Part shown: piece by piece, positions 19,978-52,977 of the stretch
Layout of the letters: each line of letters begins with the position of its first letter
Numbering within the stretch: the stretch's first letter is position 1
NCBI RefSeq assembly: GCF_013315695.1
Contig: NZ_CP054353.1
Strand: one strand, 5' to 3'
DNA from: Escherichia coli
Lineage (GTDB): Bacteria; Pseudomonadota; Gammaproteobacteria; Enterobacterales; Enterobacteriaceae
DNA length: 64,000 bases
The notes under the pieces: model-generated
Database searches by the model: none
Told to the model about the DNA's origin: nothing
The model's input: the letters and a program-made list of their open reading frames with translations, nothing else
Position numbers and translations under genes: made by a program

Positions 19978-20032
19978 GGTGATGCTGCCAACTTACTGAT
20001 TTAGTGTATGATGGTGTTTTTGAGGTGCTCCA

Positions 20033-20730: not shown

Positions 20731-20745
20731 GTTGGAGTCATTACC

Positions 20746-20754
20746 CGGTTATCT
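20746..20754. repeat. IS1 target-site duplication, right copy (CGGTTATCT)
   Basis: Matches 19969-19977. Confidence 0.9.
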
Positions 20755-21455
20755 CGCGGATCAAAGAATGGCACAGGAAAATATGAAAGATCATTTTGCA
20801 GATTGAGTTTCTGGACGACCAGACCAAGTTCACTGTTACGTCCAATATCAAGCCACAAGTTATTGCTGGTTGAGATTTCACAGCTATTCTGATAATGGCC
20901 AATTAATTCAAAACGCAAACGATTAAAATCCGAGAAATACAATGGGTTAAGCGTTATTTCCGCCAACGTTTTTTTTCCCAGTTGTTCTTTGGTAATCGGT
21001 AATACTCCCATCAACTCATCATTAAGATAAACTTTAAGCTGCGACTGAACGGGGATCAATGACGGTGACGGAGTATATTCAAGCTTTAGTTTTGCATCTG
21101 AAACTATCTCATCACTGCGCATACCAAATTCAATATACCCCAGTGGGTTGACACCATTCAAAACGATGTTACCAGGCGCTGGTGATATTTGTGTAAATGG
21201 AAGTTTAAAATGATAAGAGGAATCTTTCGCATAAACAGAGACGTTAGACTTCTCTATAGCGGGTAATACTATCCCGGAGGGAGACTTATGGATTATGGTA
21301 TCTAAAGCTGATGCAGCATTTGCCTGGTATAACCATAAAAACCCTAAGCAAATTATTGCAGTAATAAATTTTAAATATTTTCTTTCCATTTTAAAAATTT
21401 CAAGAGACATAATCAACACAAATAATATATTTAGTTGGTTAAATATAATCTAAAA

Positions 21456-23570: not shown

Positions 23571-23643
23571 GGTACGTAACTATTCATTAATACTATGATT
23601 TGACTTTAAAAAAACGAATGAATGATGTCATAAAAATAAAATT

Positions 23644-24984: not shown

Positions 24985-24988
24985 TGTG

Positions 24989-36128: not shown

Positions 36129-36427
36129 AATGGCTCACTCAAGCTTGCTCACGATTGATTCCAGTAACAAACCGTATTGTGTAATTATTTCTATAGCAGG
36201 TCGCTATATAGGATTGTATATATCGAATAATTTGAAAATCAAAGAGATAGGTAGATTTTCACTCGAAAGTAGTATTACGTGTAAGTGAGGAGTAATTATT
36301 GTTCGGTATCAAAGGGAGACAAAAAAAGCGCCCGCAGGAGATTTAACACACCTTACTCCCCTTGATGATTTACTTATTTTTCAATGACTAAATCAAAACA
36401 AGGGGAGCAAATTAACGCAAATTACAA
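36129..36427. promoter_or_regulatory. dmsA upstream region containing the presumed prophage attachment junction
   Basis: AT-rich 300-bp spacer between dmsA start and the 3' end of the phage integrase; segment AAAAAAAGCGCCCGCAGGAGATTT at about 36321-36344 partly resembles a P2-type att core as I recall it. Confidence 0.3.
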
Positions 36428-37420
36428 CTAGTCAATGGACAGTTTATGGACACTATCAGCCAGCGGATTAAAGCTAATCGCATCCTGTAAAAAGTCCGGT
36501 GAAAAATGCGCATACGTCATCGTTTGTTGAATCGTGGCGTGCCCAAGGATTCGCTGTAACGTAACGATATTTCCGCCGTTCATCATGAAATGCGTGGCGA
36601 ACGTGTGACGCATAACGTGAGTCGCCTGACCTTTGGGTAAATCCGGTTTCACCTCCTGAAGGATATCCCGAAAACGGATGTAATCAGCCTGGTACAATAG
36701 CCCGGTTTTTCGGGTTTTTATCAACGAAAGCACCGTATCAGAAACAGGAACCGCGCGGGATTTTCCATTCTTTGTGTTAAAGAACATTACGCGGTTACCA
36801 ACGATATGCTCACCACGTAAGCCAGCTGCTTCCCCCCACCTTGCGCCAGTGGAAAGACACAGAACAGCAACACGACGCGCATCCCCCTCGAGTCGTTCAA
36901 GCAGCCGATCAATCTCATCATCTGAAAGAAAGGCCATTTCTGTATTCCTGACCTTGAGCTTACGTATTCCACGCACCGGGTTTTCGTTATGGAAAACCTC
37001 CGCATCAATCAACGCAGTAAACATTGCAGACAAGGCGCACAAATCACGATTAACACTGGAGGGCATTAATCCGGCCTGTAATTTGTCTGAACGATACCCG
37101 AGCATAAACTTTCGCGTCATCTCACTGGCGCGGGGGTCCCTCATCTCACGGTTTATTTTTTCCAGCCTGACCCTGTAAGTATCCCCGTAAGGCTGATTCC
37201 GGCCATCAAGCACCCACCAGGCATCTATCAGTTCGGATAACCGACGCTGATCAGCTGGCTTGGCCTGCCACGGTTTATCGTGGAAATTCTGCAAAACATA
37301 CCTTTCAAACTCCTGTGCCTTTGACTTCAGGGTAAAAATCTTACGGATCCGCTTTCCTTCCGTCCCTTGCGGTCTTACATCAACCTTATAACGCCCGTCT
37401 TTGAGTTGCTTAATCGACAT
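36428..37420 (-). CDS. int: P2-type tyrosine integrase
   Basis: Start MSIKQLKDGRYKVDVRPQG; C-terminal tyrosine-recombinase catalytic motifs HVMRHTFATHF and LGHATIQQTMTYAH. Confidence 0.9.
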   Translation of the reverse strand: MSIKQLKDGRYKVDVRPQGTEGKRIRKIFTLKSKAQEFERYVLQNFHDKPWQAKPADQRRLSELIDAWWVLDGRNQPYGDTYRVRLEKINREMRDPRASEMTRKFMLGYRSDKLQAGLMPSSVNRDLCALSAMFTALIDAEVFHNENPVRGIRKLKVRNTEMAFLSDDEIDRLLERLEGDARRVAVLCLSTGARWGEAAGLRGEHIVGNRVMFFNTKNGKSRAVPVSDTVLSLIKTRKTGLLYQADYIRFRDILQEVKPDLPKGQATHVMRHTFATHFMMNGGNIVTLQRILGHATIQQTMTYAHFSPDFLQDAISFNPLADSVHKLSID

Positions 37421-37489
37421 GATTAGCCCCTCCAACGGATGAATCAGCCGTACACTCTCTACGGGATGAAACCCGCTCGATGTACAGCG

Positions 37490-37831
37490 TTAGCCAGCAT
37501 TGCGACGAGATCGGGGTGATTTTTGGGTAATGCCGATTGAAACCTGATCGCCCTCCGACTGAATGGAGCCATCAAGAGAGAGAGCCGGAGCTATCTGACC
37601 GGCAGCAGGCATTGTCTTATCTTTTATTAGCCACATCATGTATTTTTCAAACCGATCAACTTGGAGAACCATCTCAACAATTTTGGCTCTGGCGCTTTTT
37701 TGCCCTGATTCATAGTTCCTTATGGCAGCTAAAGACAACCCCGTAATATCCGCAAATTCCTTTTGCGTTAGCCCTTCAGCCTTGCGTATTTGACGTAGCT
37801 TTTTTGCATAGTCTATTGACAAGATAACCAT
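37490..37831 (-). CDS. P2 C-like immunity repressor (HTH)
   Basis: 113-aa ORF with HTH LTQKEFADITGLSLAAIRNYESG and GQIAPAL motif; adjacent to int in the same orientation. Confidence 0.75.
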   Translation of the reverse strand: MVILSIDYAKKLRQIRKAEGLTQKEFADITGLSLAAIRNYESGQKSARAKIVEMVLQVDRFEKYMMWLIKDKTMPAAGQIAPALSLDGSIQSEGDQVSIGITQKSPRSRRNAG

Positions 37832-37935
37832 TTGAGTATTAACCTCTCGCGAAAGATACTCGTGCGAGTATCTTTTATAAACCTAAACAAACCTTCATGA
37901 GGCGCGACAAGCGCACCAACGCAAGAGGATAGCAA
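37832..37935. promoter_or_regulatory. divergent lysogenic/early promoter switch region
   Basis: About 100-bp spacer between the divergent repressor and cox-like genes. Confidence 0.5.
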
Positions 37936-38460
37936 ATGCGGAAGTCAATTGCCGATAAAGAGTTATCTGACACACAAGCCCTTCAGGAAAACGACAGCAT
38001 CACCGAATCCGTTGGCGCGGCAAACGACGATGAACACCAAGAGGAAAAGAAAAAACGCACCTACAAAAAAGGGGCAACCTTGCGACTAGATGGCCCGGTA
38101 GCCGGACTTTGCTCACTTGAAAAAGGGGCAGCCTATATCGGGTTGACAAAAGCTGCATTGCGCGTGGCGCTTCAGCGAAATCAGATGCCTGGACACAAGA
38201 CCCGTTCAAACCCTGAAGATGAAAATTCGGATGGCGTGTGGTGGTTTAACGCCAGAGAGTGGGACAAGCTGGCTGACGAACTACCAGAATGCGAGCCGCC
38301 AGAATGGCACAACTGGAAAAGCTACTGGACATACGACCGACAGAAAAGAAAGTTTTCCCCGGCAAACAAAGAAGACTGCCAGACCATCAATGGAAAGCGG
38401 GTTTACACAGGAAGAAAGTCAAAACTGGAGCAACACCAATACAGTGGAGGCAACCAGTGA
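37936..38460 (+). CDS. Cox-like excisionase/regulator with N-terminal extension
   Basis: Region AAYIGLTKAALRVALQRNQMPG...DGVWWFNAREWDKL resembles the Cox HTH plus GEYWVY-type segment; true start may be internal. Confidence 0.5.
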   Translation: MRKSIADKELSDTQALQENDSITESVGAANDDEHQEEKKKRTYKKGATLRLDGPVAGLCSLEKGAAYIGLTKAALRVALQRNQMPGHKTRSNPEDENSDGVWWFNAREWDKLADELPECEPPEWHNWKSYWTYDRQKRKFSPANKEDCQTINGKRVYTGRKSKLEQHQYSGGNQ

Positions 38461-38544
38461 CATCAAAACAAACCGGCAACAGCGAAATCCCAGGAATGAG
38501 ATTTCGCCGCAGATGCTGTGGAAAATGGTTGTTATGCAAGCAGC

Positions 38545-38955
38545 CTACCAGGCTGATGGATGATCATCATCAATATCAAACACATTTCTGTAAAAACGAG
38601 AATGTTGCAAGGGATGAATAAGCGACCCCCAACAATCATAAATATCAGCCAGTTCGAACACATCGTATGAGAGATGTTGAGCAAACGATTCGGCACCTTC
38701 AAAAGACTCAAACACCTCATCATACAAGTGAATGTTTTCAGGATACGAAAGTGACAAGCAAAAACCAGACGTAGATTCCGTAACCAAGAAGACAAGGTGA
38801 TATTTATCATTCACCAGTGACTGAGCACATTTTTTTACAGAGCGAAGAATCACAGGGGAACGCGCGCCAATACGAAAGAGTTCTGCATGAGCACGGGCAT
38901 CAACAAAACTGTGAAACCCCTCACTTCTTGCAAGCTCACGTTCGGCAGCACGCAA
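38545..38955 (-). CDS. hypothetical protein, reverse-oriented inside the early operon
   Basis: 136-aa ORF on the opposite strand to the flanking early genes. Confidence 0.4.
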   Translation of the reverse strand: MRAAERELARSEGFHSFVDARAHAELFRIGARSPVILRSVKKCAQSLVNDKYHLVFLVTESTSGFCLSLSYPENIHLYDEVFESFEGAESFAQHLSYDVFELADIYDCWGSLIHPLQHSRFYRNVFDIDDDHPSAW

Positions 38956-39000
38956 AACCCAAAATCACCGCCCAGATTCGGATGTAAGGATAATTTTCAT

Positions 39001-39264
39001 ATGAATAAAGAGAAATCTCCGGATTATTTTGTGAAACGATTACAGGATGCAACAGAGTCAATGTTGATTGCCCTGAATAATTACTCTTACGAAGAGGCCG
39101 TAACGGTACTTGAGTGGATAAAGGAAAAAATAACGGAAGACAGCATCGTCAAGATGCAGAGTATCAACATCTCCCGTGACAAAACATTTCCACTGCGAAT
39201 ACCGCCAAAACGACGACTGGTTTACTCGATACCAGTCTCAATGCAGTGCAAATTGCCGAAATAG
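39001..39264 (+). CDS. hypothetical early protein
   Basis: 87 aa from MNKEKSPDYFVKRLQD with AAGGA Shine-Dalgarno upstream; divergent from 38545-38955. Confidence 0.4.
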   Translation: MNKEKSPDYFVKRLQDATESMLIALNNYSYEEAVTVLEWIKEKITEDSIVKMQSINISRDKTFPLRIPPKRRLVYSIPVSMQCKLPK

Positions 39265-39359
39265 TTTATGAGAAAACATAAATACTCCTTTGTGTGGTTG
39301 GTTATCGTTACAACAGTTCGGGCAAGAATTGCAAGGCGTAACGAAATTACCACAAAACC

Positions 39360-39761
39360 ATGCGCCGGGCATGGCTAAAAACCCGGCACAAATTCACAGC
39401 AGCAGTAGGGATTTTTATGAAGAAACCGGGAAATTTTTCACAGCAGAATTTTCGAACAAGTGCCGAACGCCACGTTGCACGCCAGCACTTCCGCAAAAAT
39501 AGTGCGACCACAACCACTGAAATCCATGCCACACCAGACGGTCACCCGGTAAAACAAACCGGCAAGCACACCTGGACGATTGGCGACACTGGCATCGTTA
39601 TTCACAAAAGTTTTCGCAGCCCTGTTACTGGCAGATTTAATTTCACCCTGACTCGCGGGGATGATTACTTCGGACAGGACTTCACATTTTTTGAAGCCTT
39701 AAGAACGGCAGACAGATTAATCAGCGGCCTGCGTTTTCAATATCCGGGAAGCAAGCACTGA
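39360..39761 (+). CDS. hypothetical early protein
   Basis: 133-aa ORF, start uncertain. Confidence 0.3.
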   Translation: MRRAWLKTRHKFTAAVGIFMKKPGNFSQQNFRTSAERHVARQHFRKNSATTTTEIHATPDGHPVKQTGKHTWTIGDTGIVIHKSFRSPVTGRFNFTLTRGDDYFGQDFTFFEALRTADRLISGLRFQYPGSKH

Positions 39762-39779
39762 TAAATAAAGGATTCAGCC

Positions 39780-40022
39780 ATGATCGAAGCCTACAAAATA
39801 CTTATCAATAACGCGTTGCAACGTTATCACTTTGAACTCGCAAACCGGGGCGTAACTAAGGATGAAAGCCTTCGTAACTCACTGCGCGGCGCAATTATGG
39901 GGCTATACAACTGCGCACTGGGCAGCGATGACCGTGAAGCGCTGGAAGAATTAAAGTCGATTATGACAGAACTGTTTGAAGGTGAAATTGTTGAGCCTTA
40001 CTTCACAGGGGTAGCCGCATGA
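39780..40022 (+). CDS. hypothetical early protein
   Basis: 80-aa ORF, stop overlaps the next start (ATGA). Confidence 0.45.
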   Translation: MIEAYKILINNALQRYHFELANRGVTKDESLRNSLRGAIMGLYNCALGSDDREALEELKSIMTELFEGEIVEPYFTGVAA

Positions 40023-40141
40023 GCATATTTCTTTCATGGGTAATTCTGATTATCTCCGTGCTTATGGCAATCGGCATTATGCGAATTATCTACACACTGA
40101 AGGATATCGAATTATTCTTTACCGGCGATAAACGCCGTAAA
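40016..40141 (+). CDS. small hydrophobic membrane peptide (41 aa)
   Basis: MSIFLSWVILIISVLMAIGIMRIIYTLKDIELFFTGDKRRK; translationally coupled start; below the ORF-track size cutoff. Confidence 0.35.
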
Positions 40142-40156
40142 TAAAGCGAAAACCTT

Positions 40157-40252
40157 ATGAAGAATGTAAAAGCAATACTCACCATCGCCACTGTATGGGT
40201 GATATTTCAGGTGAGTGCGCTTATCTGGTTAGCCCTGAAGATCTGGGAATAA
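40157..40252 (+). CDS. small hydrophobic membrane peptide (31 aa)
   Basis: MKNVKAILTIATVWVIFQVSALIWLALKIWE. Confidence 0.3.
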   Translation: MKNVKAILTIATVWVIFQVSALIWLALKIWE

Positions 40253-40333
40253 CCTGAAGCCGAAAGCAGGCGCGGAATAACACCAGAAAACACACGAGCA
40301 ATTAATTAAGGCATTCATGCCTTCGGGTTCCCT

Positions 40334-40588
40334 TTGTCTTTTTTCAGGAGTCAACAAATGAGAACAGCCGAATCACCCGGCAGAAAAATAACCGCCAGAC
40401 CAGCTAACCATCATGCACATATCAGCATTGCCGCAAGAAAAGCCGAGCGTGCGCATATCTGCGAATTGCTGCATGACCTGGTTAACACAGCGAGAGAGAA
40501 GCACACCTCCCCGGAGGAAACCTGTTCATCCATTGAACGACTGATTGCAATACTCGCCAACCCAGACGAACTGAAGGGGTGCGCATAA
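40334..40588 (+). CDS. hypothetical early protein
   Basis: 84-aa ORF, stop overlaps the exonuclease start. Confidence 0.35.
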   Translation: MSFFRSQQMRTAESPGRKITARPANHHAHISIAARKAERAHICELLHDLVNTAREKHTSPEETCSSIERLIAILANPDELKGCA

Positions 40589-41169
40589 TGAACCATCTCA
40601 TGATTGACACCGAAACACTGGGTAACGGACCGGACGCAGCCATATTCACGATTGGGGCGGTGTTTTTCGACCCGTTCACCGGAAAGCTGGGCAAGCAGTT
40701 TGAGAAATTCATCGACCCGGTGGATTCAGAACGCAACGGCGGAACCGTCAATGCAGCCACCGCTGTATGGTGGGCCGGACAATCCGTGGAAGCCAGAGCC
40801 TGCCTGCGCAACGCAGATGGAACAGAGCTGGCAGCAGTGACCGAATTTCTGGCGTTCATTTCACGCAATATGCATGACGAAAGCCCGGGCAATTCACTGA
40901 ACATATGGTGTAAGGGCGCATCCTTCGATTTCCCGATCCTGAAATCCGCCATAACACGCACAGCCGGAGAAAAAAGCATCCCCTGGTGCTACTGGAACGA
41001 GCGCTGTATGCGCCCGCTTATCGCCATGGCTGAATCAACTGGATGGAAAATGCCAGGCAGATCAGGCAAAGAGACCATTGCTCACACCGCGCTGGGCGAC
41101 GCCGTTTACCAGGCAAAGGTCGTGTCAGAAATCTGGCAGCGCTTCACAACACCATTCCTGAACATATGA
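40579..41169 (+). CDS. DnaQ-like 3'-5' exonuclease
   Basis: 196 aa, Exo I motif MIDTETLG near N-terminus and later HTALGDAV. Confidence 0.7.
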   Translation: MRIMNHLMIDTETLGNGPDAAIFTIGAVFFDPFTGKLGKQFEKFIDPVDSERNGGTVNAATAVWWAGQSVEARACLRNADGTELAAVTEFLAFISRNMHDESPGNSLNIWCKGASFDFPILKSAITRTAGEKSIPWCYWNERCMRPLIAMAESTGWKMPGRSGKETIAHTALGDAVYQAKVVSEIWQRFTTPFLNI

Positions 41170-41402
41170 GGTGAAGCCATGGTCGCCATCCTGAATGTGT
41201 GTTGCTGCCCCCCCCTGAACGTGGAAAGAAAAGCCCGCGCATCGCTGCGTTTATTCCGCGACGGCGTGCGGAATTTTTCACGCATAAAACCCCACGACTA
41301 CCTGGTAATAAGAATCGGTTTTCGCTGGCGATTGCTGAGCAAAAACAACGGGGCGTCATGGGATTTATTAACGCACGAAACCTATAACAAAGAGGCCGCG
41401 TT

Positions 41403-42347
41403 ATGAGCAAAGAACTGTTATCCGGCACGCCGCTTAAATGGGTGGGCGGAAAAAGTCGCATCATGAACACACTGAAGGCGCATCTGCCAGAAGCAGACTG
41501 CCTGGTTGAGCCGTTTGTGGGTGGCGCATCGGTATTCATGAACACCAGTTACAAGCGTTACATCCTGGGTGATTCCAATGGTGCGCTGATTAATTTCTAC
41601 CGGCAAGCCAGGGACAACACCGACAGCCTGATCGACGAGGCGAAAACCCTGTTCCTGAACCACAACAACAGGGGTGACTATCTCATCATTCGCGAAACCT
41701 TTAACGCAGAGAATCATGCCTTCCTGAACAGCAGAACGGGAATAAGCGACCGCCGTGAACTGCGACTGGCCGCCATGTTTTTGTACCTGAACCGACACAG
41801 CTTTAACGGTTTGTTCCGCGTGAACGGAAAAGGCGATTTTAACGTGCCTTTCGGCTGCTACCGCAAGCCCTACTTCCCTGAGCGTGAAATCCGCGCATTT
41901 GCAGACAAGGCAAACAGCACCCGAACGCTGCTTATCCACGCAGATTTTAAGGATACGCTGAACTCTGCCAGTCACCTGTTCGGCATGGGCAACACGCTTT
42001 GCGTGTACTGCGATCCCCCTTACCTGCAATTCAGTGGCCGGGACAATTTTACCGCCTACGGAAAACCATTCGATGAAGACGAGCACGTTCGTCTGAGGGC
42101 AGCGCTCGACCGCCTTTCACAGGAAACGGGCGGCATGACCAGCATCACCATCTCCAATTCCGACACACCGGAAACACGACGCATTTATCGGGGTTACCGG
42201 ATGAACTGCATACAGGCACCACGAAGCGTTGGCGCAAGAACCCGGGAATCAGCACCGGAGGTTATCGCCACCCTGAGATGCATCACATCCGCCTTATCAA
42301 CGGTTCGCACTTCTGCGCCACGAACATGGAAGAAGTACGCGTGCTGA
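41403..42347 (+). CDS. dam: DNA N6-adenine methyltransferase (Dam-like)
   Basis: 314 aa with CDPPY catalytic motif and FVGGASVF SAM-binding region. Confidence 0.85.
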   Translation: MSKELLSGTPLKWVGGKSRIMNTLKAHLPEADCLVEPFVGGASVFMNTSYKRYILGDSNGALINFYRQARDNTDSLIDEAKTLFLNHNNRGDYLIIRETFNAENHAFLNSRTGISDRRELRLAAMFLYLNRHSFNGLFRVNGKGDFNVPFGCYRKPYFPEREIRAFADKANSTRTLLIHADFKDTLNSASHLFGMGNTLCVYCDPPYLQFSGRDNFTAYGKPFDEDEHVRLRAALDRLSQETGGMTSITISNSDTPETRRIYRGYRMNCIQAPRSVGARTRESAPEVIATLRCITSALSTVRTSAPRTWKKYAC

Positions 42348-42375
42348 CAGCAACACGCAATACGGGAGGTAAAGC

Positions 42376-42726
42376 ATGGCAGTGATTTATATCGCCGGTC
42401 CCATGACCGGATGCAAAGACCACAACAGGACGGCATTTTGCGTGGAGGACCTGAAACTTCGGTGCGCCGGAAACATCGTTCTTAATCCTGCCGTACTGCC
42501 TGACGGATTAAGCCAGCAGCAGTACATGAGTATTTGTATTCCGATGCTCATGTGCGCCGATGCCATTTACTTACTGGATGGATGGGAAGAGTCCGCTGGC
42601 GCACGGGCTGAGTACGCAATGGCGCTCAAACTGAACATGCATGTGTCATTCCCGGAAAACCGGGCAGCCGGCGAAACCGTCGCGCAGCTGCTTCACAAAT
42701 CAAAAGCCGCACAGGCGACTGAGTAA
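42376..42726 (+). CDS. nucleoside 2-deoxyribosyltransferase-like / DUF4406-like small protein
   Basis: 116 aa starting MAVIYIAGPMTG (Rossmann-like YxAGP motif). Confidence 0.45.
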   Translation: MAVIYIAGPMTGCKDHNRTAFCVEDLKLRCAGNIVLNPAVLPDGLSQQQYMSICIPMLMCADAIYLLDGWEESAGARAEYAMALKLNMHVSFPENRAAGETVAQLLHKSKAAQATE

Positions 42727-43164
42727 CCGACCGGAGATCGAAACATGATTGCGCGCAGAGCTACCAACCGTCTCACAGGCTTTATTCCAGGCAAGGTTGA
42801 TCATGCACTCCATCACGGGGCTGTCACTTTCCTCAACAAAGGAGAGGCGCGCAATCATGCATTCCGGGGTGAGCATGTGGCGCTGGCTAATCAGTCTTTG
42901 ATAGCTAAGCGCCTGCCATTCAGCCTTTTCAGCTCTGATAGAAAGAGAGGAAGCCATGACCTGCCACACCAGAAAGAGCACCACACTGGCGAAAACAAAC
43001 GTTGCGCTGTCGCAAAAAATGAATGCGGCAACAATCGCAAGGAAAGCGCTAATCCTCAGAACCAAGGAAGCGCGACGGTGGAGAAGGCTTGTCATGTGTT
43101 CAAGCCAGTAGCTGTACCACAGGTCAAAAAGAATTTCGTAATCAGAAGGGAGCTTATCACTCAT
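42700..43164 (-). CDS. hypothetical membrane protein, convergent with the dam module
   Basis: About 154 aa from MSDKLPSDYEILFDLWYSYW with two hydrophobic helices; start lies 16 bp from the left edge of the tandem repeat. Confidence 0.4.
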   Translation of the reverse strand: MSDKLPSDYEILFDLWYSYWLEHMTSLLHRRASLVLRISAFLAIVAAFIFCDSATFVFASVVLFLVWQVMASSLSIRAEKAEWQALSYQRLISQRHMLTPECMIARLSFVEESDSPVMECMINLAWNKACETVGSSARNHVSISGRLLSRLCGF

Positions 43165-43547
43165 CAGAAACACCCCGCGTATGCAGACAATCACCAGTTG
43201 CCAGGTGATATTAATTCGCAACATTCTAACCACATCAGCACGCAACACAAAAACCGCTTGCCAGCGCTCGTCGTGTCAGGTTACATTTCCGCTGCACCTC
43301 ATAAAACGGGTGCCGGGTTTCGCAGCCTGCTGACAACCAAAGCGCACAACCGCGCCAGCGGTTTTTTTGTGCGTACTGTATTGCCACGTCTTTTTCGCGT
43401 CAGAATTATGGCGGGGCGTACGGGGCCGACTTCGGTCGGGCCGGGTTCTTTGCTAGCCGGTACTGCGAACCTCGTACGTCTCGCCACCCACAGTTTCGCA
43501 GCTCTGGATGGTGAGTTTTCACAACTTACTAGCAAAGAGGCCACACC

Positions 43548-43769
43548 ATGGCAAACCGCAAGCAACAGCGCGCCCGCGCTGAGCGTCTTCACATCCGCAG
43601 CGAAATCAACCGCAGACTTTTCCGCGCAACACGCGTCGCGCAAATCATGCATATCAACATGCTGCATGAGCGCACGCACGCACTATCAAACCGTTACTGC
43701 GCTGCTGTCTTCAGCTATCTCGCCGAAGATCTGGCAGAACTGCAAAGCCTCATCAACCAGCACCGATAA
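43548..43769 (+). CDS. small basic protein (73 aa), copy 1
   Basis: MANRKQQRARAERLHIRSEINRRLFRATRVAQ..., AAAGAGG Shine-Dalgarno; identical copy at 44377-44598. Confidence 0.45.
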   Translation: MANRKQQRARAERLHIRSEINRRLFRATRVAQIMHINMLHERTHALSNRYCAAVFSYLAEDLAELQSLINQHR

Positions 43770-43837
43770 ACCACATCCGGAAGCTATCCCACACCTGCAC
43801 GCGGGAGGCTTCCGCACGTCTGTTACCGGAGGTTCTC

Positions 43838-44008
43838 ATGAAGAGCGTTAAGGGACTTTCAGATATTCAGGACTTCTTTAACTGGATGTGGGCGGTGGAT
43901 CCCCTGCTGGCTTCCCGCCTGAACAACTGGCACGACTATTACCGCCGCGCCTGTAAACAGGCTGCCCGCAGCGTCACCACATACGGGGCTTTCTCCTTCA
44001 CCGTTGAC
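43838..44008 (+). pseudogene. 5'-truncated duplicate of the 138-aa pre-A gene
   Basis: First 57 codons match 44667-44837, then the frame runs into repeat unit 2. Confidence 0.5.
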
Positions 44009-44837
44009 TATGCAGACAATCACCAGTTGCCAGGTGATATTAATTCGCAACATTCTAACCACATCAGCACGCAACACAAAAACCGCTTGCCAGCGCTCGT
44101 CGTGTCGGGTTACATTTCCGCTGCACCTCATAAAACGGGTGCCGGGTTTCGCAGCCTGCCGACTAGCAAAGCGCACAACCGCGCCAGCGGTTTTTTTGTG
44201 CGTACTGTATTGCCACGTCTTTTTCGCGTCAGAATTATGGCGGGGCGTACGGGGCCGACTTCGGTCGGGCCGGGTTCTTTGCTAGCCGGTACTGCGAACC
44301 TCGTACGTCTCGCCACCCACAGTTTCGCAGCTCTGGATGGTGAGTTTTCACAACTTACTAGCAAAGAGGCCACACCATGGCAAACCGCAAGCAACAGCGC
44401 GCCCGCGCTGAGCGTCTTCACATCCGCAGCGAAATCAACCGCAGACTTTTCCGCGCAACACGCGTCGCGCAAATCATGCATATCAACATGCTGCATGAGC
44501 GCACGCACGCACTATCAAACCGTTACTGCGCTGCTGTCTTCAGCTATCTCGCCGAAGATCTGGCAGAACTGCAAAGCCTCATCAACCAGCACCGATAAAC
44601 CACATCCGGAAGCTATCCCACACCTGCACGCGGGAGGCTTCCGCACGTCTGTTACCGGAGGTTCTCATGAAGAGCGTTAAGGGACTTTCAGATATTCAGG
44701 ACTTCTTTAACTGGATGTGGGCGGTGGATCCCCTGCTGGCTTCCCGCCTGAACAACTGGCACGACTATTACCGCCGCGCCTGTAAACAGGCTGCCCGCAG
44801 CGTCACCACATACGGGGATTTCTCCTTCACCGTGGAC
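44009..44837 (+). repeat. tandem duplication, unit 2 (829 bp)
   Basis: See unit 1. Confidence 0.85.
44377..44598 (+). CDS. small basic protein (73 aa), copy 2
   Basis: Identical translation to 43548-43769. Confidence 0.45.
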   Translation: MANRKQQRARAERLHIRSEINRRLFRATRVAQIMHINMLHERTHALSNRYCAAVFSYLAEDLAELQSLINQHR

Positions 44838-45083
44838 GGTCGTTACCGCGTGGACGTGAAAGGTGATGGTGATGGACTGGGTTTATTTCACATCAACGGC
44901 ACCGACAGTACCGCCATCAGCTGGTCGTCATCAGAGATGGCGCTGGTTCTGGAAATGACAACCCACAGCGTGGCCGTGAAAGGTATATACACCGCAGAAG
45001 GTTTTATCGGCGAATACCAGCGCCTTCTCGTGCTGTACCGCGCGGCGTTTCAGGTGGCAACTGCCGGGGAGTGCGACGCATGA
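44667..45083 (+). CDS. hypothetical protein immediately upstream of gene A
   Basis: 138 aa, GGAGG Shine-Dalgarno, stop overlaps the A start. Confidence 0.5.
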   Translation: MKSVKGLSDIQDFFNWMWAVDPLLASRLNNWHDYYRRACKQAARSVTTYGDFSFTVDGRYRVDVKGDGDGLGLFHINGTDSTAISWSSSEMALVLEMTTHSVAVKGIYTAEGFIGEYQRLLVLYRAAFQVATAGECDA

Positions 45084-47593
45084 GCGACCATAACGCACAA
45101 CTGGCGTACCCGTGGAACGCCCCGCTACCGGTTATCGATCCTGAAACGTTCGGCAGAGCACAGCCAACCGCATTACGCCAGGCCATTCAGAGCTACATCA
45201 ACGAGGACATTCGCATTGATGCCAGACTGGATGAAGAAACCGTCGCCTTTCTGACAACCACAGACGAAGGGAAGCGAATTAATTCGCACCTTCACCACAA
45301 CGAAGAGCGTCGGATCAGACTGGAAAAACTGGCGCGGCACAAACGCGAGAATCCGCCCACGGTGGTATCGGAAGCCATGGCAGAACTTCGCGCCCTGCCC
45401 TCGTTTCTTGGCAACGCGCTCATTCGTGATCTGGCGCGTTTAAACCGCAAACAGCAAAGCGCCCGCCATGAAGGCGTGAAAAACAACAATACACACGTGG
45501 CTGATAACTTTGTTCGCCGTGGACTGCGCACACGCCTGAAACGCATCGAACAGGTGAATGAATGCTTCGCCACGACGGCATTCAAAGCCACCGCAGCACG
45601 CCATCGCCTTGATGAATTACTCATGCTGCCACAACTCAACCGTGATCAAATTCAGCGCCTTGCCACACTAACGGCGGCGGCATTTTCCACCGAACTGGAA
45701 CGCATATGTGATGAAGTTACTGAGCGGACAGGAAAAGGCGACGATAACCTGTTTACCTGGTTGCTGACTTACCAGCAGCTGGCGCGCATGGCAATAAAAC
45801 TGGGCGTGAACCCACCATACTGGCCGTCACTCGAGATCAGACGTGACCGCCGCACGGCACCAGACCCTGAACTGGTACCGGGCGCGGTAATGCGTATCAC
45901 CTGCGCCACCTGGTGGAACAACCAGCTGCGCCACCTCGCTGATCTCTGGCGGGAGGAATTACTGCGTGCCGCCGGAAGAGTATCGCGCAAGGCATCCCCC
46001 TACATCAGCCATGAGTCACTCCAGGAATTCCGGGAGAAACGCCAGCGCACCCGTGATTTTCTCAAAAGCTGGGACATTGAAAACGAAGACGGTGAACGCC
46101 TGAGCCTGGAGGACGTGTACTGGTCAGGGCTGGGGAATCCGCGCAACCGCCGCAACGAGATGATGGCCTGCGTCAGAGGGATGGAACAGGTCGCCGAATC
46201 GCGTGGTGACTCCGCGTTCTTCGTGACAGTGACCTGCCCTTCCCGCTTTCACAGCGTAAACGAGGACGGCAGCCTGAACCCGAAATACAACGGTGCCACC
46301 GTGCGCGATGCCAGTGATTATCTGGTTTACGACGTCTTTGCAGCTGCAAGAAAAAAACTCAACAAAGAAGGCCTGAGCTGGTACGGGGTGCGCACCGTTG
46401 AGCCACACCATGACGGCACACCGCACTGGCACATGCTGGTATTCACCGCCCCGGACAATGAAGAACGCATCATTGAAATCATGCGTGACGCAGCAATCAA
46501 ATCAGATCGCGCAGAACTGGGGAATGATATTTCTCCGCGCTTCAAGTGCGAAAAAATCGACCCGGCAAAAGGCACACCGGCAAGCTACATCGCAACCTAT
46601 ATTGGCAAGAACCTGGACGCCAGCACCTTTCACGACAATGACCCGAAAACCGGCAAACCTTACGCCGATAAAGAATCGGGAAAAACCATGGCGGAAACCG
46701 TGGAAAACGCCATTGCCTGGGCGAGTCTCCACCGCATCCGGCAGTTCCAGTTCTTCGGTATCCCGCCCCGCCAGGTATGGCGTGAACTCCGCCGCCTTGC
46801 CGGACAAATGGAGCGTAACCCCGCATCACCGAAGCGCCTGGACCATGACGACATTGACGCCATTCTGGCCGCCGCTGACGTGGGGTGTTTTGCCACCTAC
46901 ATCAACCGTCAGGGCGGCGTGCTCATTCCACGCAACCTGTACCTGATCCGCACCGCATACGAAACCGCAGATGAGGCCAACGACTACGGCGAATTCCCGC
47001 AGCGCATCTACGGAATTTGTGCCCCGTCGCTCGGCGAGCGCTACACCATCTGCACCCATCCGGACGAGTGGAAACTGGTCAGAAAAGAAGCGAAAGCCGA
47101 CAACAGCACGGACGAGGATTTTGACGTTGGGGGCGGCTTCGCCGCACCTTGGACTCGTGGCAATAACTGTCGCCATGATGAAAAAACAGACACCGAAGAG
47201 GGTAAAAACCCACCACCGGAAACCAGGAAAGAACAAAAACTGGTCGTCCCGGAAGGTGATTTGGGCGAGTGGTTAAGGTCACTGACCCCCACAGAGCGAA
47301 AACAACTCACCAGGCAGCTGAAAGATGCGCCATCTGACACAAAAACCGTGAAAACCGGCGGCCCCACCACGCCCGATGACGTCATACATGTGCGTACCGC
47401 ATTGCCGCTGGCTGACGTCACCACCACCGTGATCAAGTCGGCACTGAGCACGACGGGCGAGGAGCTGCACAGTGGCGCGGCACTTTCCGTACACAGAGGT
47501 GCACGCGTTCGCCTGCCTGACGGGCGGATTGTGCACTGGGATGAGAAATCACGAAGCCTGGTGGCAGCAGATCAACCGGAGGTGAACCCATGA
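45071..47593 (+). CDS. P2 gpA-like rolling-circle replication initiator
   Basis: 840 aa with HUH-type motif HHDGTPHWHMLVF. Confidence 0.9.
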   Translation: MRRMSDHNAQLAYPWNAPLPVIDPETFGRAQPTALRQAIQSYINEDIRIDARLDEETVAFLTTTDEGKRINSHLHHNEERRIRLEKLARHKRENPPTVVSEAMAELRALPSFLGNALIRDLARLNRKQQSARHEGVKNNNTHVADNFVRRGLRTRLKRIEQVNECFATTAFKATAARHRLDELLMLPQLNRDQIQRLATLTAAAFSTELERICDEVTERTGKGDDNLFTWLLTYQQLARMAIKLGVNPPYWPSLEIRRDRRTAPDPELVPGAVMRITCATWWNNQLRHLADLWREELLRAAGRVSRKASPYISHESLQEFREKRQRTRDFLKSWDIENEDGERLSLEDVYWSGLGNPRNRRNEMMACVRGMEQVAESRGDSAFFVTVTCPSRFHSVNEDGSLNPKYNGATVRDASDYLVYDVFAAARKKLNKEGLSWYGVRTVEPHHDGTPHWHMLVFTAPDNEERIIEIMRDAAIKSDRAELGNDISPRFKCEKIDPAKGTPASYIATYIGKNLDASTFHDNDPKTGKPYADKESGKTMAETVENAIAWASLHRIRQFQFFGIPPRQVWRELRRLAGQMERNPASPKRLDHDDIDAILAAADVGCFATYINRQGGVLIPRNLYLIRTAYETADEANDYGEFPQRIYGICAPSLGERYTICTHPDEWKLVRKEAKADNSTDEDFDVGGGFAAPWTRGNNCRHDEKTDTEEGKNPPPETRKEQKLVVPEGDLGEWLRSLTPTERKQLTRQLKDAPSDTKTVKTGGPTTPDDVIHVRTALPLADVTTTVIKSALSTTGEELHSGAALSVHRGARVRLPDGRIVHWDEKSRSLVAADQPEVNP

Positions 47594-47994
47594 CACGATT
47601 CCATTGCGTACTCCAGCGCCATGATTTCAGCACCATCATGAGTGGACGCATTCCGGCACTGACGCTGAGCGGCGTCAGTGTTCGGCCACAGCCAGGCGAC
47701 GAACTGGAGATCACGATCGCAAACCCCGATCGCAGCACAGATACCGTCATGACCGACATCCTGACTGCAAGAATCAACGCCGACAGAAGCGCATTCATCG
47801 TTGCCGTGCGTCCTCGTCGCGCCATATCAGAGCCTGAACCACTGACCCCCGTCGGAAAAATCATGCAGGCATACCACGAAAAACAGACCAGAAAACTCAA
47901 TGAAGAGCTGGCAAGAACGTTGGCCGTCGTTAACCGAAAAGCGGCAATTGCCCGCTATGTGCATTCAGCCGCCAACAGGCAATCACGCAGGTAA
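47590..47994 (+). CDS. hypothetical protein
   Basis: 134-aa ORF, translationally coupled to A. Confidence 0.4.
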   Translation: MTRFHCVLQRHDFSTIMSGRIPALTLSGVSVRPQPGDELEITIANPDRSTDTVMTDILTARINADRSAFIVAVRPRRAISEPEPLTPVGKIMQAYHEKQTRKLNEELARTLAVVNRKAAIARYVHSAANRQSRR

Positions 47995-48003
47995 CAAAAG
48001 ACC

Positions 48004-48213
48004 ATGAACATGACCAAAAACACCAAACTGAAGGAGCACACCATGAACGACATCAGGAAGATCAGCGACAAAGACCTGAAGAAAATGATTGAGTCGGCGC
48101 AGCAGCTGCTCTCACGACGAAATCCGGTTGTGGAAGAAACATGGTGGGAAAATTTACTGGCAGCGCTGACCGAACTCCGCGAACGCCGGAACAACGAAGG
48201 AGCTGCCAAATGA
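48004..48213 (+). CDS. hypothetical small protein
   Basis: 69-aa ORF; stop overlaps the next start. Confidence 0.35.
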   Translation: MNMTKNTKLKEHTMNDIRKISDKDLKKMIESAQQLLSRRNPVVEETWWENLLAALTELRERRNNEGAAK

Positions 48214-48548
48214 AGACACCCAGAATGACCGGAAAGGAAATCATTTTACGCTACCTGAAAACGCACGCACGCTTCAGCGCACCAGAGCTGGTTGAAAAAC
48301 TGGGCGTGAAAAGGACCGTCATTAATCAGGCTGCCGGAAAGATGGTGCGCGAAGGGCTGCTGGTTGTGGATGGGTACACGGACAAGATAACGCATTACCG
48401 GAAGCCAACGAAAAAGGAGCTGCGGGAGCTGAAACGACGGGCAGAATGGCAACAGGAGCCGTCAGTAATTGAAGCCTGCAAGCGCAGCGAAATCATGAAG
48501 AGAATTCTGTTTATCTACGGCGCTGGCGAAGAGCTGCCCGTCATCTGA
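48210..48548 (+). CDS. putative winged-helix DNA-binding protein
   Basis: 112 aa from MKTPRMTGKEIILRYLKTHARFSAPELVEKLGV. Confidence 0.45.
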   Translation: MKTPRMTGKEIILRYLKTHARFSAPELVEKLGVKRTVINQAAGKMVREGLLVVDGYTDKITHYRKPTKKELRELKRRAEWQQEPSVIEACKRSEIMKRILFIYGAGEELPVI

Positions 48549-48580
48549 ACCCAACAATAAAACCAACACGGGAGACAAAT

Positions 48581-48898
48581 ATGCCAACACAGGTTGCAAC
48601 AGAGGGACGACTGGCAGCAGACCCGAACACAAGGAGAACAGCCAAAGGTACCAGCGTCACAACAGCACAACTGGCGGTATCACTACCCTGCCATGGCGCA
48701 GAACAGCCAACCACAATGTGGCTTTACCTTATCGCGTTCGGGAAGCAACACGAAGAACTGGCAAAACACAGAAAAGGCGATCTGATCCTGGTGCACGGGA
48801 ACTTGCAGGTAAACAGGTATCAGGACAAGTACGAGCAACAGAAAGAGGGCTGGCAGCTGCTGACGCAAAGCATTATCAGCTCAAGAACCGGGCGATGA
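48581..48898 (+). CDS. short SSB-like OB-fold protein
   Basis: 105 aa; pattern GRLAADPNTRRTAKGTSVTTAQLAV...WLYLIAFGKQHEELAKHRKGDLILVHGNLQ resembles the SSB N-terminal OB-fold without a C-terminal tail. Confidence 0.45.
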   Translation: MPTQVATEGRLAADPNTRRTAKGTSVTTAQLAVSLPCHGAEQPTTMWLYLIAFGKQHEELAKHRKGDLILVHGNLQVNRYQDKYEQQKEGWQLLTQSIISSRTGR

Positions 48899-48947
48899 CT
48901 TCACGCATGTTACCCTCAGCAGCGAGGGTAACACAGGATTTCTTTTT

Positions 48948-49592
48948 TCAGTCAAACCGAAATCGGCCGCTTGTCGCGTATGCATAGGTGACCACCGCAC
49001 CCAGCGCATTCACACGCTTCTTCACATAAATCACATTACCATCCTGATAGTCACCGTATGGGTAGCAAATAAAGATTGTTTTTTGCAAATCAGGATCATC
49101 AACAAATGCCCCTGAACAACTTTTTGAGCTACCGCGACTGTACTCATAGGGAGCGGAATAGAATGAATCTTCACCCGGAAGAAAATATATCAGCGTAACC
49201 AGGAGGGTAAACAGAATCATCCAGGTAAGAAGGCACATACCCGAAAAAAACTTAAGATACGATGTAACCCCGGTAAATTTAGACCGATCAACCAGGTTCT
49301 TTTTCAACAGGCACAGTGAGACAAAAACCGAAAGCACCACAGACACTGAAACAAGGCAGTTTGTCGTGAACGAATAAAGGTAGGTAATTCTGTAAACATC
49401 GTTTCGCCACCAAATAAAAAGAAAAATCCCCCCCAAAACAGAAAGCGTGACAAAAGTTAAATAAGGATATGAGTAATTTTTCACAGTTCTCACCCGGCAA
49501 TACACCACTGATTCAGACAGATGATTATCATCACCACCCACCCCCAAAAATCGCAAGATAAAAAATGCACAAAAGCGCACGAAATTGCACAA
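48948..49592 (-). CDS. hypothetical multi-pass membrane protein at the tin/old-equivalent position
   Basis: 214-aa ORF on the opposite strand, AT-rich, several hydrophobic helices. Confidence 0.45.
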   Translation of the reverse strand: MCNFVRFCAFFILRFLGVGGDDNHLSESVVYCRVRTVKNYSYPYLTFVTLSVLGGIFLFIWWRNDVYRITYLYSFTTNCLVSVSVVLSVFVSLCLLKKNLVDRSKFTGVTSYLKFFSGMCLLTWMILFTLLVTLIYFLPGEDSFYSAPYEYSRGSSKSCSGAFVDDPDLQKTIFICYPYGDYQDGNVIYVKKRVNALGAVVTYAYATSGRFRFD

Positions 49593-49987
49593 TTTTTCTT
49601 ATGTGTTTCATCCCCATTCAGCCCAGTAACGGCGCTGGCTGAGGCCGGTTTGCACGGTGCACGAAAAACGAGGCAATTGCAGCGCGCAGGCGACGAGGGA
49701 AGGGCGCCCGAATTGAGGGGTGGAAGGCAGGTTGCTTTATTTGGGGTCGTATTGCGCGTGATACGCACGCAGTGAAGCCGGTTCTGAAAAAACCACACCG
49801 AAACAGAGTCAGAAAAACAGGCCGCCAGAATGCGTCTGGTTGAGTTTTACGGGGTCGGGATTAAATGCGGAAACATCACACCGCAGGCATGACGCGAAAA
49901 AGAGAAAAACCACAGCAAAACATAATGTTAAATGTTATTGATGAGTTGAGAAGCGAGAGGTGTATTGCGTTGACAGAGCTGGAGAGT
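49593..49987. other. noncoding segment expected to contain the phage cos / packaging site
   Basis: In P2 cos lies between the old end and Q; GC-rich motif GGCGACGAGGGAAGGGCGC at about 49688 resembles the P2 cohesive-end sequence as recalled. Confidence 0.3.
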
Positions 49988-50012
49988 CGGGGCATAAATT
50001 TTTTATGCCCCG
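49988..50012 (-). terminator. palindromic hairpin downstream of Q
   Basis: CGGGGCATAAA-TTT-TTTATGCCCCG. Confidence 0.45.
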
Positions 50013-50038
50013 GCGAAGCAGCCGACAAGCGAAGCGCG

Positions 50039-51082
50039 TCAGCTGGCGTTATCCTGAAGCAACGCATAGGGGTTAAAGCGCATTACCTCGCTTCCCAGCC
50101 ATTCATTGACATGCTTCATGGCCTCCATGACAGGTTGCAGCTCGTTGATGAAAAACACCCTCGCCGCTTTCTCAACGTCACCGAGCGCCGCGTTCCCGTC
50201 AGGCATTGCCCCCATCAGCTGAGGCGGTACACGGTGAGCCGCAAGGATATCGTCACGGGCGGTACCCTTGATGTTAAGGAATTCGTCCTTCGCGGTGATT
50301 TGCTGGAACGGCAGTATTTGCACACCATCCTTGCCGCCACCTGGCGCGTGCAGAAGGATATTGCGGAACGCCCCCTTGCCACGGGATTCCGTGAGGGTTT
50401 TCTTTACCGCCTCCACGCTTTCAGCGTTTGCCTGGGCGGCCCCGACATAGACAATGCACCCGGCATGTGAGCCGTTGTCATAGTAGAGCTTGCGGAACGT
50501 GTCCGCCGAGTTCGACAGGCTCACCGACAGCAGCCCACCGATATACTCCGGCATCCCGTAGATTTCCTGGTTGATATCAGGGTTCAGAACATGGCACACA
50601 GCCCCCTTCCGGAACGCGAATTCAGAACCATCATCATTGAGGTACCAGTACGTATCGAGATCACTGCCCCGCCGCGTGTATTTCGCCAGCGCCGGGCGGA
50701 GCGCAATGGGCTCACCGAACCTGTTACGGCGCACCTCAAGATAGGCATTACCGAACACAAACCAGTCGAGTGCAAACGCTGAAAACGCCTGGCGGGACAG
50801 GAGCGGATGAGGAACAAAGCACCCGTTCAGGGCGTTGCGCTTAAAATACAGGGCCGACTGGTGCCATGACGCACGACGGGAGGCGCGAGCAATGGCGTTC
50901 CAGTCCATGGGGGTGTCATAGTAGCGGCCATTATCGGCGCACGACATATTATCAAGAAGATCAAGACGGCTTGCTTCATAAGGACCGTCAAACGTGAAAG
51001 CACTGAGTGACGGCGCTGATTTCAGTGCATCGGCCAGTGAGCCCGTGCCGCGCTTTCCGGTGTATTTTTTACGTTTACTCAT
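50039..51082 (-). CDS. P2 gpQ-like portal protein
   Basis: 347 aa, leftward, paired with the terminase gene. Confidence 0.85.
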   Translation of the reverse strand: MSKRKKYTGKRGTGSLADALKSAPSLSAFTFDGPYEASRLDLLDNMSCADNGRYYDTPMDWNAIARASRRASWHQSALYFKRNALNGCFVPHPLLSRQAFSAFALDWFVFGNAYLEVRRNRFGEPIALRPALAKYTRRGSDLDTYWYLNDDGSEFAFRKGAVCHVLNPDINQEIYGMPEYIGGLLSVSLSNSADTFRKLYYDNGSHAGCIVYVGAAQANAESVEAVKKTLTESRGKGAFRNILLHAPGGGKDGVQILPFQQITAKDEFLNIKGTARDDILAAHRVPPQLMGAMPDGNAALGDVEKAARVFFINELQPVMEAMKHVNEWLGSEVMRFNPYALLQDNAS

Positions 51083-51087
51083 TGTGT

Positions 51088-52821: not shown

Positions 52822-52977
52822 GCGCCCCCCTTCATTAGCTGAAACAAAGAGTAAACGCCCCGCCCTTTACCGGATATTCGGCGCCGTTGTAGCGGTGTTC
52901 TTACAACAACCCCGCCTTGAGATGCCATCCCCTCCCCCCGCATGATGGAATACACCATTCCGGAAAGGAGATTTTTC

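Follow-up and report, generated by a model that had tools for sequence, protein, structure and literature searches.

Why should a prophage carry the same 0.8 kb of DNA twice, directly in front of its replication genes? The question is raised by a 64,000-nucleotide stretch of Escherichia coli DNA (contig NZ_CP054353.1 of assembly GCF_013315695.1; the whole stretch is called the window here), in which positions 43180 to 44837, within a P2-family prophage, consist of two head-to-tail units of 829 bp each. A first-pass annotation of the window had listed this segment as a near-perfect 829-bp tandem duplication, with about six differences between the units, upstream of replication gene A. On the evidence presented below, we consider it probable that the repeat is an inherited array of two P4-type antisense-RNA immunity cassettes, placed upstream of a 138-aa open reading frame (orf138) and gene A.

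Geometry and content of the repeat

An ungapped comparison of the two units yielded exactly 6 mismatches (99.3% identity), located at unit positions 99, 152, 156, 158, 810, and 826 (window coordinates 43278/44107, 43331/44160, 43335/44164, 43337/44166, 43989/44818, and 44005/44834), and the unit coordinates are those already given in the first-pass annotation. Chance cannot produce two 829-bp units with merely six mismatches. Since no base is common to both sides of the unit boundaries, the junction (44008/44009) is one without microhomology. A separate repeat search returned the same 829-bp spacing; Tandem Repeats Finder reported no repeat in the window, because its longest period (500) is below the length of the unit.

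Each unit contains a 368-nt noncoding leader, a 73-aa open reading frame (orf73), and the first 171 nt of orf138. As had been noted before, the first copy of orf138 is therefore truncated (43838 to 44008) and the second is intact (44667 to 45083), and gene A was indeed found to follow, at 45080 to 47593. The promoter lies inside the 829-bp unit and hence is duplicated too.

Each unit carries a C4-type antisense RNA and its predicted targets

The first-pass annotation had called the leader structured and noncoding; the noncoding leader is real, but its identity had been missed. Searches against Rfam showed that it holds two RNA genes, an IsrK/seqA-like leader RNA followed by an antisense RNA of the C4/CI type (all coordinates and scores are given in Table 1). 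IsrK corresponds to the seqA element of satellite phage P4, and C4 corresponds to its CI RNA (PMC3632133, PMC4825925). The C4 fold, by the Rfam RF01695 class criterion a long closing stem with two internal hairpins and a single-stranded junction, is present in both units, where the RF01695 match extends over its full length (1 to 87).

The two RNA genes and the start of orf73 are linked by short complementary elements. The hairpin loop of C4 (CUUUGCUAG; b') complements CUAGCAAAG, which is found before the IsrK terminator (b1) and again before orf73 (b2), and the junction segment CUGCGAA (a') complements UUCGCAG, present in the IsrK loop (a1) and 4 nt past the end of the C4 match (a2). With two of its segments, the antisense RNA therefore complements both an upstream and a downstream pair of targets, the exception being b1 of unit 1, with 2 mismatches. 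Element b2 runs into the Shine-Dalgarno sequence (CUAGCAAAGAGG), such that AAGAGG, 7 nt ahead of the orf73 ATG, overlaps the predicted antisense target. Predicted duplex energies with the C4 b' loop were -19.6 kcal/mol for b2, -13.2 kcal/mol for b1 of unit 2, and -3.9 kcal/mol for b1 of unit 1. The same arrangement of a and b targets has been described for the c4 RNA of P1/P7 and the CI RNA of P4 (PMC3632133, PMC5320573, PMC4825925). Additional copies of the 9-mers in the window (at 19042, 12450, and 39612) were no more numerous than expected by chance.

A sigma-70-type promoter ends 7 nt before the first position of the IsrK match; the promoter scan itself reports this promoter with an 18-nt spacer and TACATT as the -10 element. 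Across 80 related loci, the -35 hexamer is invariant, the -10 hexamer is kept in 78, and the length of the spacer is fixed, with a variable spacer sequence. Between the IsrK terminator and C4, at 43381 to 43409 and 44210 to 44238, there is another promoter-like sequence (TTGCCA, 17 nt, AATTAT); relatives do not conserve its -35 (T/C variation), and its start would fall within the C4 stem.

In the window, then, the duplication has mainly added a second antisense-RNA repressor and a second set of its targets. The first-pass annotation had proposed a doubled dose of a promoter and a small protein; a simple rise in dose is probably not the net effect.

Coordinated variation of the pairing elements

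If these elements pair, they should vary together among relatives, and this was evaluated in 86 cassettes (47 distinct), drawn from 80 IMG/VR loci, phage P88, E. coli genomes, and the window. Every IMG/VR locus among these 80, all retrieved with orf73, had a single C4. The six pairing elements turned out to be hypervariable, with at least 6 a alleles, at least 12 b alleles, and about 29 combinations of the two; column entropy amounted to 0.875 bit in pairing columns versus 0.188 bit elsewhere. Despite this diversity, complementarity is retained: between C4 and a2/b2, 97.5% of the cells are paired and 10 of 17 pairs have changed on both sides (slid controls, 39 to 51%), and between a1/b1 and C4 the corresponding values are 99.1% and 11 of 16 (slid controls over both pairing tests, 27 to 51%). 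The coordinated a/a' and b/b' changes, which involve all six elements, are of the type that underlies heteroimmunity in related systems, and we infer from them that the allele pairs confer immunity specificity.

One strain holds several such pairs. E. coli STEC2018-607 has three cassettes: an array accounts for two of them, and the third belongs to a second prophage at dmsA. No two of the three have the same (a, b) pair, which would be expected if every pair represented a separate immunity group. Another locus, L081 (IMGVR_UViG_2582580934_000004, positions 236 to 340), contains a C4 gene with an extra hairpin and two b' loops of different alleles, namely, the GAGCAAAG type plus its own CUACACAAG type in one RNA; this double-b' C4 might be another possible way of holding two specificities.

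Combinatorial variation was also seen in P4-like satellites retrieved from IMG/VR, with 16 a x b combinations in 56 cassettes. Comparing these 56 P4-like with the 80 P2-like cassettes, we found no a allele, no b allele, and no a/b pair common to both. Two C4 genes in one locus were not seen among the 57 P4-like loci retrieved, of which 56 gave one C4 match.

The same junction in other genomes

The first-pass annotation had allowed that the repeat could be an assembly artifact. A 120-nt query centered on the junction, however, matched end to end in the complete E. coli genomes G6/7, G8, and STEC2018-607, and also in G1/2, which has an additional 79-bp deletion. The exact junction 30-mer was found as well in one IMG/VR contig (L007/L088) and in one metagenome contig (L089), both of which end inside the array. 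In total, the junction is present in 4 of 5,426 complete E. coli genomes, the four assemblies being independent and originating from two laboratories; the exact junction was not found among GTDB contigs sampled at one genome per species. Because several arrays with this same junction have units that differ at 43 to 64 positions, we reject the artifact option and regard the array of the window as genuine on the basis of these sequences, rather than as a collapsed or expanded assembly.

The relatives differ in what the array contains. In G6/7, unit 1 has UUUCCAC as its a allele and CAAACGAAG as its b allele, with all six elements coordinated, and unit 2 is of the type found in the window (type A), for a total of 43 differences between the units; all 6 nucleotide differences within orf73 are synonymous. 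In the STEC2018-607 array, unit 1 (a, UUGGAAC; b, CUAGCAAAG) and unit 2 (a, UUCGCAG; b, CAAACGUAG) are 64 differences apart. Both units of metagenome contig L089 are of one further type (type B), with 0 differences over the 446 nt of unit 2 that the contig includes (its first 446 nt). IMG/VR contig L007/L088, which covers the unit 2 side, has a chimeric unit 2, with IsrK of one type and C4 of another. G1/2, a clonal relative of G6/7 and G8, lacks the equivalent of window positions 44024 to 44102, a loss that includes the -35 of the unit 2 promoter and some of its spacer and leaves the array with the unit 1 promoter alone.

A unit 1-specific Asp-to-Ala change, 20 nt from the junction, occurs in all four arrays in which that part of unit 1 has been sequenced, and wherever unit 1 has been sequenced (four arrays), its orf73 is intact. 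Together, the shared junction and the Asp-to-Ala marker point to a single origin of the array, which probably arose once, through an illegitimate join that brought codon 57 of orf138 next to a position 78 nt before the promoter -35, and then spread among prophages. In the whole survey, an IsrK mismatched to its own C4 was encountered in just two cassettes, namely, unit 1 of the window and the IMG/VR contig; that both are in arrays suggests recombination between units. Specificity segments would have been swapped by homologous recombination or gene conversion, and such exchange would therefore explain why relatives carry two different specificities in series. Regarding a segmental duplication, the head-to-tail geometry is there, with the units of relatives differing at 43 to 64 positions and the differences in the window being allele relics, so within the window genome, one unit does not have to be descended from the other.

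Probable homogenization of unit 1 to unit 2 in the window

In the window itself, the two C4 genes do not differ, nor do the two operators, and all are of type A. Three of the six differences are clustered and fall in and beside b1 of unit 1, which reads CAACCAAAG, and this is the b allele of a complete cassette (type C) that is intact in two other loci, L025 and L013. Type C agrees with unit 1 of the window at unit positions 152, 156, and 158 (L025 and L013) and, in L025, also at position 99. At the positions where L025 and L013 have their own b' and b2 alleles (274/276 and 351/353), unit 1 is of type A, and from position 159 through position 809 it is identical to unit 2. The clustered b1 differences are thus, judged by these alleles, a relic of type C and not random mutations. 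The parsimonious reading is that unit 1 was formerly a type C cassette, most of which was converted to type A, from a point between positions 159 and 219 up to position 809. As a result of such a conversion, the predicted pairing between IsrK of unit 1 and the C4 b' loop falls from -13.2 to -3.9 kcal/mol, and the array would now represent a double dose of one C4 species with two identical operators and one IsrK whose b1 is unmatched.

A single-copy relative was found in E. coli MSB1_4I, which carries the same prophage at the same dmsA site with a single type B cassette. Outside the cassette, its prophage (NZ_LR898874.1, 1905438 to 1923209) and the window (35183 to 53297) are 99.8 to 99.9% identical, and the differences cluster at 43317 to 43672 and 44107 to 44501, with small patches at 42402 to 42504 (a DUF4406 gene) and 37589 to 37658 (the repressor gene). 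A different cassette on a near-identical backbone indicates that the cassette region has been exchanged while the backbone stayed nearly constant.

A model for the array and its alternatives

In the model that we favor, each cassette would be read from its sigma-70 promoter through the IsrK/seqA-like leader (a1, b1, and the terminator) and the C4/CI RNA (a' and b') into a2/b2 and orf73. By analogy with P1 c4, P4 CI, and N15 CA, the promoter would be constitutively active in the lysogen, and transcripts extending past the IsrK terminator would be processed into C4, probably by RNase P, as are the known C4 and CI RNAs (PMC5499578). C4 might then pair with a2/b2, both in cis and in trans, and block translation of orf73, in line with the occlusion of the ribosome-binding site by the b' loop that PMC5320573 reports in its summary of Citron and Schuster (1990). 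The epsilon-like product of orf73, orf138, and gene A would thereby be kept off, probably via polarity on downstream transcription, as in the analogous systems. The short IsrK RNA, in turn, would supply decoy copies of the targets and might serve as a decoy or in termination control. Two different cassettes in series would act as two locks, providing double immunity and two checkpoints ahead of gene A; in the window, this two-specificity state would have decayed to a double dose of one specificity. Going one step further, and only tentatively, we speculate that the recognition loops of the P2-family module form a combinatorial a x b "barcode" and that arrays and double-b' C4 RNAs evolved to hold two barcodes. 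A prophage with two barcodes could exclude, or resist derepression by, two rival groups of P2-family phages and gate its replication behind two RNA locks, and the array of the window might be a snapshot of conflict-driven cassette turnover.

Several points weigh against our interpretation. All functional steps at this locus are deduced from homology and covariation, and a role of Rho-dependent polarity in the control of gene A is an assumption taken over from P1 and P4. At 32% over 50 aa, orf73 is modestly similar to P4 epsilon, and its product is, by family likeness, a putative ligand of the repressor of its own prophage. The direction of the exchange could be either of two, i.e., an array of types C and A was converted or a patch was imported into a duplicated type A cassette, and the copy number in the window itself rests on one sequence. 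Moreover, the loss of the unit 2 promoter in G1/2 and the homogenized units of the window and L089 also fit a neutral, unstable structure.

This last point leads to a serious alternative, albeit one that we consider unlikely: the array would be real and composed of C4 cassettes but would be a neutral, unstable by-product of recombination between related and often coresident prophages, with a useless second cassette. Its rarity fits this explanation, since it was encountered in 4 of 5,426 complete E. coli genomes, in 1 of 80 IMG/VR orf73 loci (L007, at the contig end), and in 0 of 57 P4-like loci, as do the single cassette of the otherwise equivalent MSB1_4I prophage, the missing -35 in G1/2, the homogenization in the window and L089, and the presence in STEC2018-607 of several related prophages that could recombine. 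On the other hand, the array has persisted long enough for five lineages to carry different allele pairs, orf73 has stayed intact in unit 1 of four arrays, with differences between the G6/7 copies that are synonymous throughout, and L081, with its two b' loops in one C4, represents an independent route to dual specificity.

Very little credence, in our view, is due to a simple, recent, in-place duplication in the window strain followed by six random point mutations. While head-to-tail units of 99.3% identity are what such an event would leave behind, 4 of the 6 differences reproduce the preexisting type C allele of L025, the other two are common to unit 1 of arrays in other genomes, and unrelated strains share the junction with units 43 to 64 differences apart. 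It is even harder to believe that a single-copy region was wrongly expanded during assembly; near-identical repeats of 0.8 kb are difficult for short-read assemblers, and two metagenome contigs do end inside the array, but the same junction with divergent units was recovered in four complete, independently assembled genomes from two laboratories, and the six differences in the window are consistent with known alleles, not noise. A different function, equally improbable, would be the defense of a helper phage against P4-like satellites, in which C4 would cross-repress the satellite epsilon/alpha operon. The homology to P4 immunity makes this conceivable, and the idea has been raised for prophage IsrK-C4 systems (PMC3632133), yet the 56 P4-like and 80 P2-like cassettes share no a, b, or a/b allele, and the targets that match C4 are those of the cassette itself. 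Given these nonoverlapping allele sets, we rejected cross-immunity against satellites.

Relation to known systems

The immunity array proposed here combines known parts. The closest counterpart of its cassette is the PLE operon of P4 (seqA, CI RNA, seqC, epsilon, orf151, cnr, and alpha), which contains the same two Rfam families in the same order. In P4, as in the window, two antisense-RNA segments complement upstream and downstream targets, the downstream b target runs into a Shine-Dalgarno sequence, and an epsilon-family protein is followed by a replication gene, with two small open reading frames before alpha in P4. P4-like satellites resemble the P2-family cassettes in having combinatorial specificity alleles, with disjoint allele sets. 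Unlike P4, the host of the cassette in the window is a complete P2-family (helper-type) prophage and not a satellite. Its epsilon-like reading frame has 73 aa and comes first behind b2, whereas P4 epsilon has 95 aa and another small reading frame directly follows b2; its replication gene encodes a P2-type nickase A, in contrast to the alpha primase of P4; orf138 is unrelated to P4 orf151; and the cassette occurs as a tandem pair, an arrangement not seen in the 57 P4-like loci retrieved.

The immI locus of P1/P7 (c4, icd, and ant) likewise has a processed antisense RNA that is cotranscribed with its target, as would be the case in the window by analogy, with a1/b1 upstream, a2/b2 downstream, and b2 at the ribosome-binding site of a small first open reading frame. 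It controls an antirepressor, and the candidate antirepressor of the window is epsilon-like, with no similarity to Icd or Ant (tblastn). Heteroimmunity in this system stems from compensatory a/a' and b/b' changes, according to citations of Citron and Schuster (1990) in PMC3632133 and PMC5320573. The window differs in that its cassette is part of a P2-family replication operon, belongs to a family with far more specificity alleles, and forms a tandem array.

In Salmonella, the isrK-orf45-anrP locus of Gifsy-1 (Hershko-Shalev et al. 2016, PMC4825925) has an IsrK-family leader whose intrinsic terminator lets part of the transcription pass, followed by a stable RNA generated by processing (STnc1160); the locus controls an antirepressor-like gene and influences prophage induction (PMC4825925). 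Gifsy-1, however, is a lambdoid prophage with a single copy and other downstream genes (orf45 and anrP), and in the published model, the short IsrK acts directly on its own mRNA as an activator (PMC4825925), unlike what we propose for the window. Finally, N15 (CA RNA and antC; Ravin et al. 1999, as cited in PMC3632133) has a small processed RNA of the same structural class that controls an antirepressor operon; N15 is a different phage type, and the likeness is one of description, not of sequence comparison.

The RNA families, the antisense logic, and heteroimmunity via compensatory changes are thus already known, and databases already name the orf73-type reading frame "derepression protein." Within an incomplete coverage of the literature, we found no account of a P2-family, helper-type phage whose replication operon includes a C4-controlled epsilon-family gene, no description of the extent of combinatorial allele diversity in such cassettes, and no description of tandem C4 arrays or two-specificity arrays; these negatives amount to no more than an absence of evidence. 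P2-type phages are the textbook noninducible temperate phages, governed by the C/Cox protein switch, and epsilon is the weapon of satellite P4 against that switch. Here, a helper-type phage itself appears to bear an epsilon homologue with P4-style antisense-RNA control, directly upstream of its replication gene. The cassette family represents a large natural set of covarying intermolecular RNA pairs that could be used to test the specificity rules of antisense RNAs and might be a source of orthogonal RNA repressor/operator pairs, and the tandem arrays suggest that RNA-based immunity is stackable. In a survey of P4-like elements, delta was the sole P4-specific gene with clear homologues in P2-like phages (PMC8628076).

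Proteins, prophage context, and neighboring features

The element that hosts the array is a complete P2-family prophage adjoining dmsA in E. coli, with an integrase, a 113-aa helix-turn-helix (HTH) repressor, an early operon, gene A, and portal, terminase, capsid, tail, and lysis genes. A homologue of gene A follows orf73 at a distance of approximately 0.5 kb in 69 of 70 related IMG/VR loci. P4-like satellites are elements of about 11 kb without structural genes and with a core set of psu, delta, sid, alpA, alpha, and an integrase. A P4-like satellite was rejected as the identity of the element, as it has structural genes and its downstream replication gene is A, not alpha.

In Pfam, the product of orf73 falls into the family "Derepression protein" (PF25738; E value, 1.8e-6; residues 10 to 65) and is 32% identical to P4 epsilon over 50 aa (BLASTP; E value, 8e-8). 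P4 epsilon is an antirepressor that inactivates the C repressor of P2. No similarity to P1 Icd or Ant was detectable, and a tblastn search of phages with orf73 returned nine P88-like records alone. For orf138, nothing was found in Pfam, in a PDB sequence search, or with PADLOC, and it was rejected as the counterpart of P4 orf151 when a comparison showed no similarity. The PDB sequence search and PADLOC were also empty for orf73 and for the divergent 154-aa gene to the left, the start codon of which is 16 nt from the array, and none of five proteins searched matched NCBIfam.

Table 1. Features of the tandem array and its surroundings (window coordinates)
Feature	Position	Strand	Details
Array unit 1	43180-44008	+	829 bp; repeat search and ungapped comparison
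Array unit 2	44009-44837	+	829 bp; repeat search and ungapped comparison
Sigma-70-type promoter, unit 1	43258-43286	+	TTGCCA, 17 nt, TTACAT
Sigma-70-type promoter, unit 2	44087-44115	+	One spacer base differs (44107 G versus 43278 A)
IsrK/seqA-like leader RNA, unit 1	43294-43368	+	Rfam RF01394, 65.9 bits (gathering score 50)
IsrK/seqA-like leader RNA, unit 2	44123-44197	+	Rfam RF01394, 64.3 bits
Intrinsic terminator of IsrK, unit 1	43348-43368	+	End of IsrK match
Target a1, unit 1	43319-43325	+	UUCGCAG, in IsrK hairpin loop
Target a1, unit 2	44148-44154	+	
Target b1, unit 1	43334-43342	+	CAACCAAAG, variant allele
Target b1, unit 2	44163-44171	+	CUAGCAAAG, perfect complement of C4 b'
C4/CI-type antisense RNA, unit 1	43404-43491	+	Rfam RF01695, 82.8 bits (gathering score 45)
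C4/CI-type antisense RNA, unit 2	44233-44320	+	Identical to unit 1 copy, 82.8 bits
b' of C4, unit 1	43448-43456	+	CUUUGCUAG, hairpin loop
a' of C4, unit 1	43463-43469	+	CUGCGAA, single-stranded junction
b' and a' of C4, unit 2	44277-44285 and 44292-44298	+	
Operator, unit 1	43495-43540	+	a2 UUCGCAG 43495-43501; b2 CUAGCAAAG 43529-43537; Shine-Dalgarno AAGAGG 43535-43540
Operator, unit 2	44324-44369	+	a2 44324-44330; b2 and Shine-Dalgarno 44358-44369
orf73, copy 1	43548-43769	+	Epsilon-like "derepression" protein, putative antirepressor; phrog_3688
orf73, copy 2	44377-44598	+	Protein identical to copy 1
Truncated orf138'	43838-44008	+	First 57 codons; Asp51-to-Ala specific to unit 1
orf138, intact	44667-45083	+	phrog_3237; stop overlaps gene A ATG (ATGA)
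Gene A, P2-type replication endonuclease	45080-47593	+	phrog_91, E value 1.9e-244; RefSeq annotation of relatives
Divergent 154-aa gene	42700-43164	-	phrog_6315; left neighbor, single copy
HTH repressor, 113 aa	37490-37831		phrog_147

The frame of the truncated orf138' continues out of register to a stop at 44680; the resulting 280-aa fusion (43838 to 44680), a read-through frame made by the duplication, had no Pfam match and is treated as nonfunctional here. This is one of several long open frames across the RNA genes (42745 to 43851 and 43838 to 44680 on the plus strand; 43299 to 43679 and 44128 to 44508 on the minus strand), some of which are labeled "hypothetical protein" or "ash family protein" by RefSeq in relatives but which are probably not real genes.

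Elsewhere in the prophage, compared with STEC17-183 and MSB1_4I, about 480 bp are missing from the window at 42273 to 42278, including the 3' end of a Dam methylase gene and a 78-aa gene; because of this, the Dam reading frame is 314 aa long instead of 326 aa. The interval that separates dmsA from the prophage integrase, at the border of the integration site, contains a match to the STnc130 small RNA (36219 to 36353; Rfam, 126 bits). Outside the prophage, the window contains an island of approximately 13.5 to 13.6 kb (14949 to 28438) with a second cellulose-synthase (bcsA/B/C) cluster and GGDEF/EAL genes, which stands in place of about 1.7 kb (ycaK to ycaN) of STEC17-183 and is 100% identical in E. 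coli MSB1_4I and NZ_OZ547117.1.

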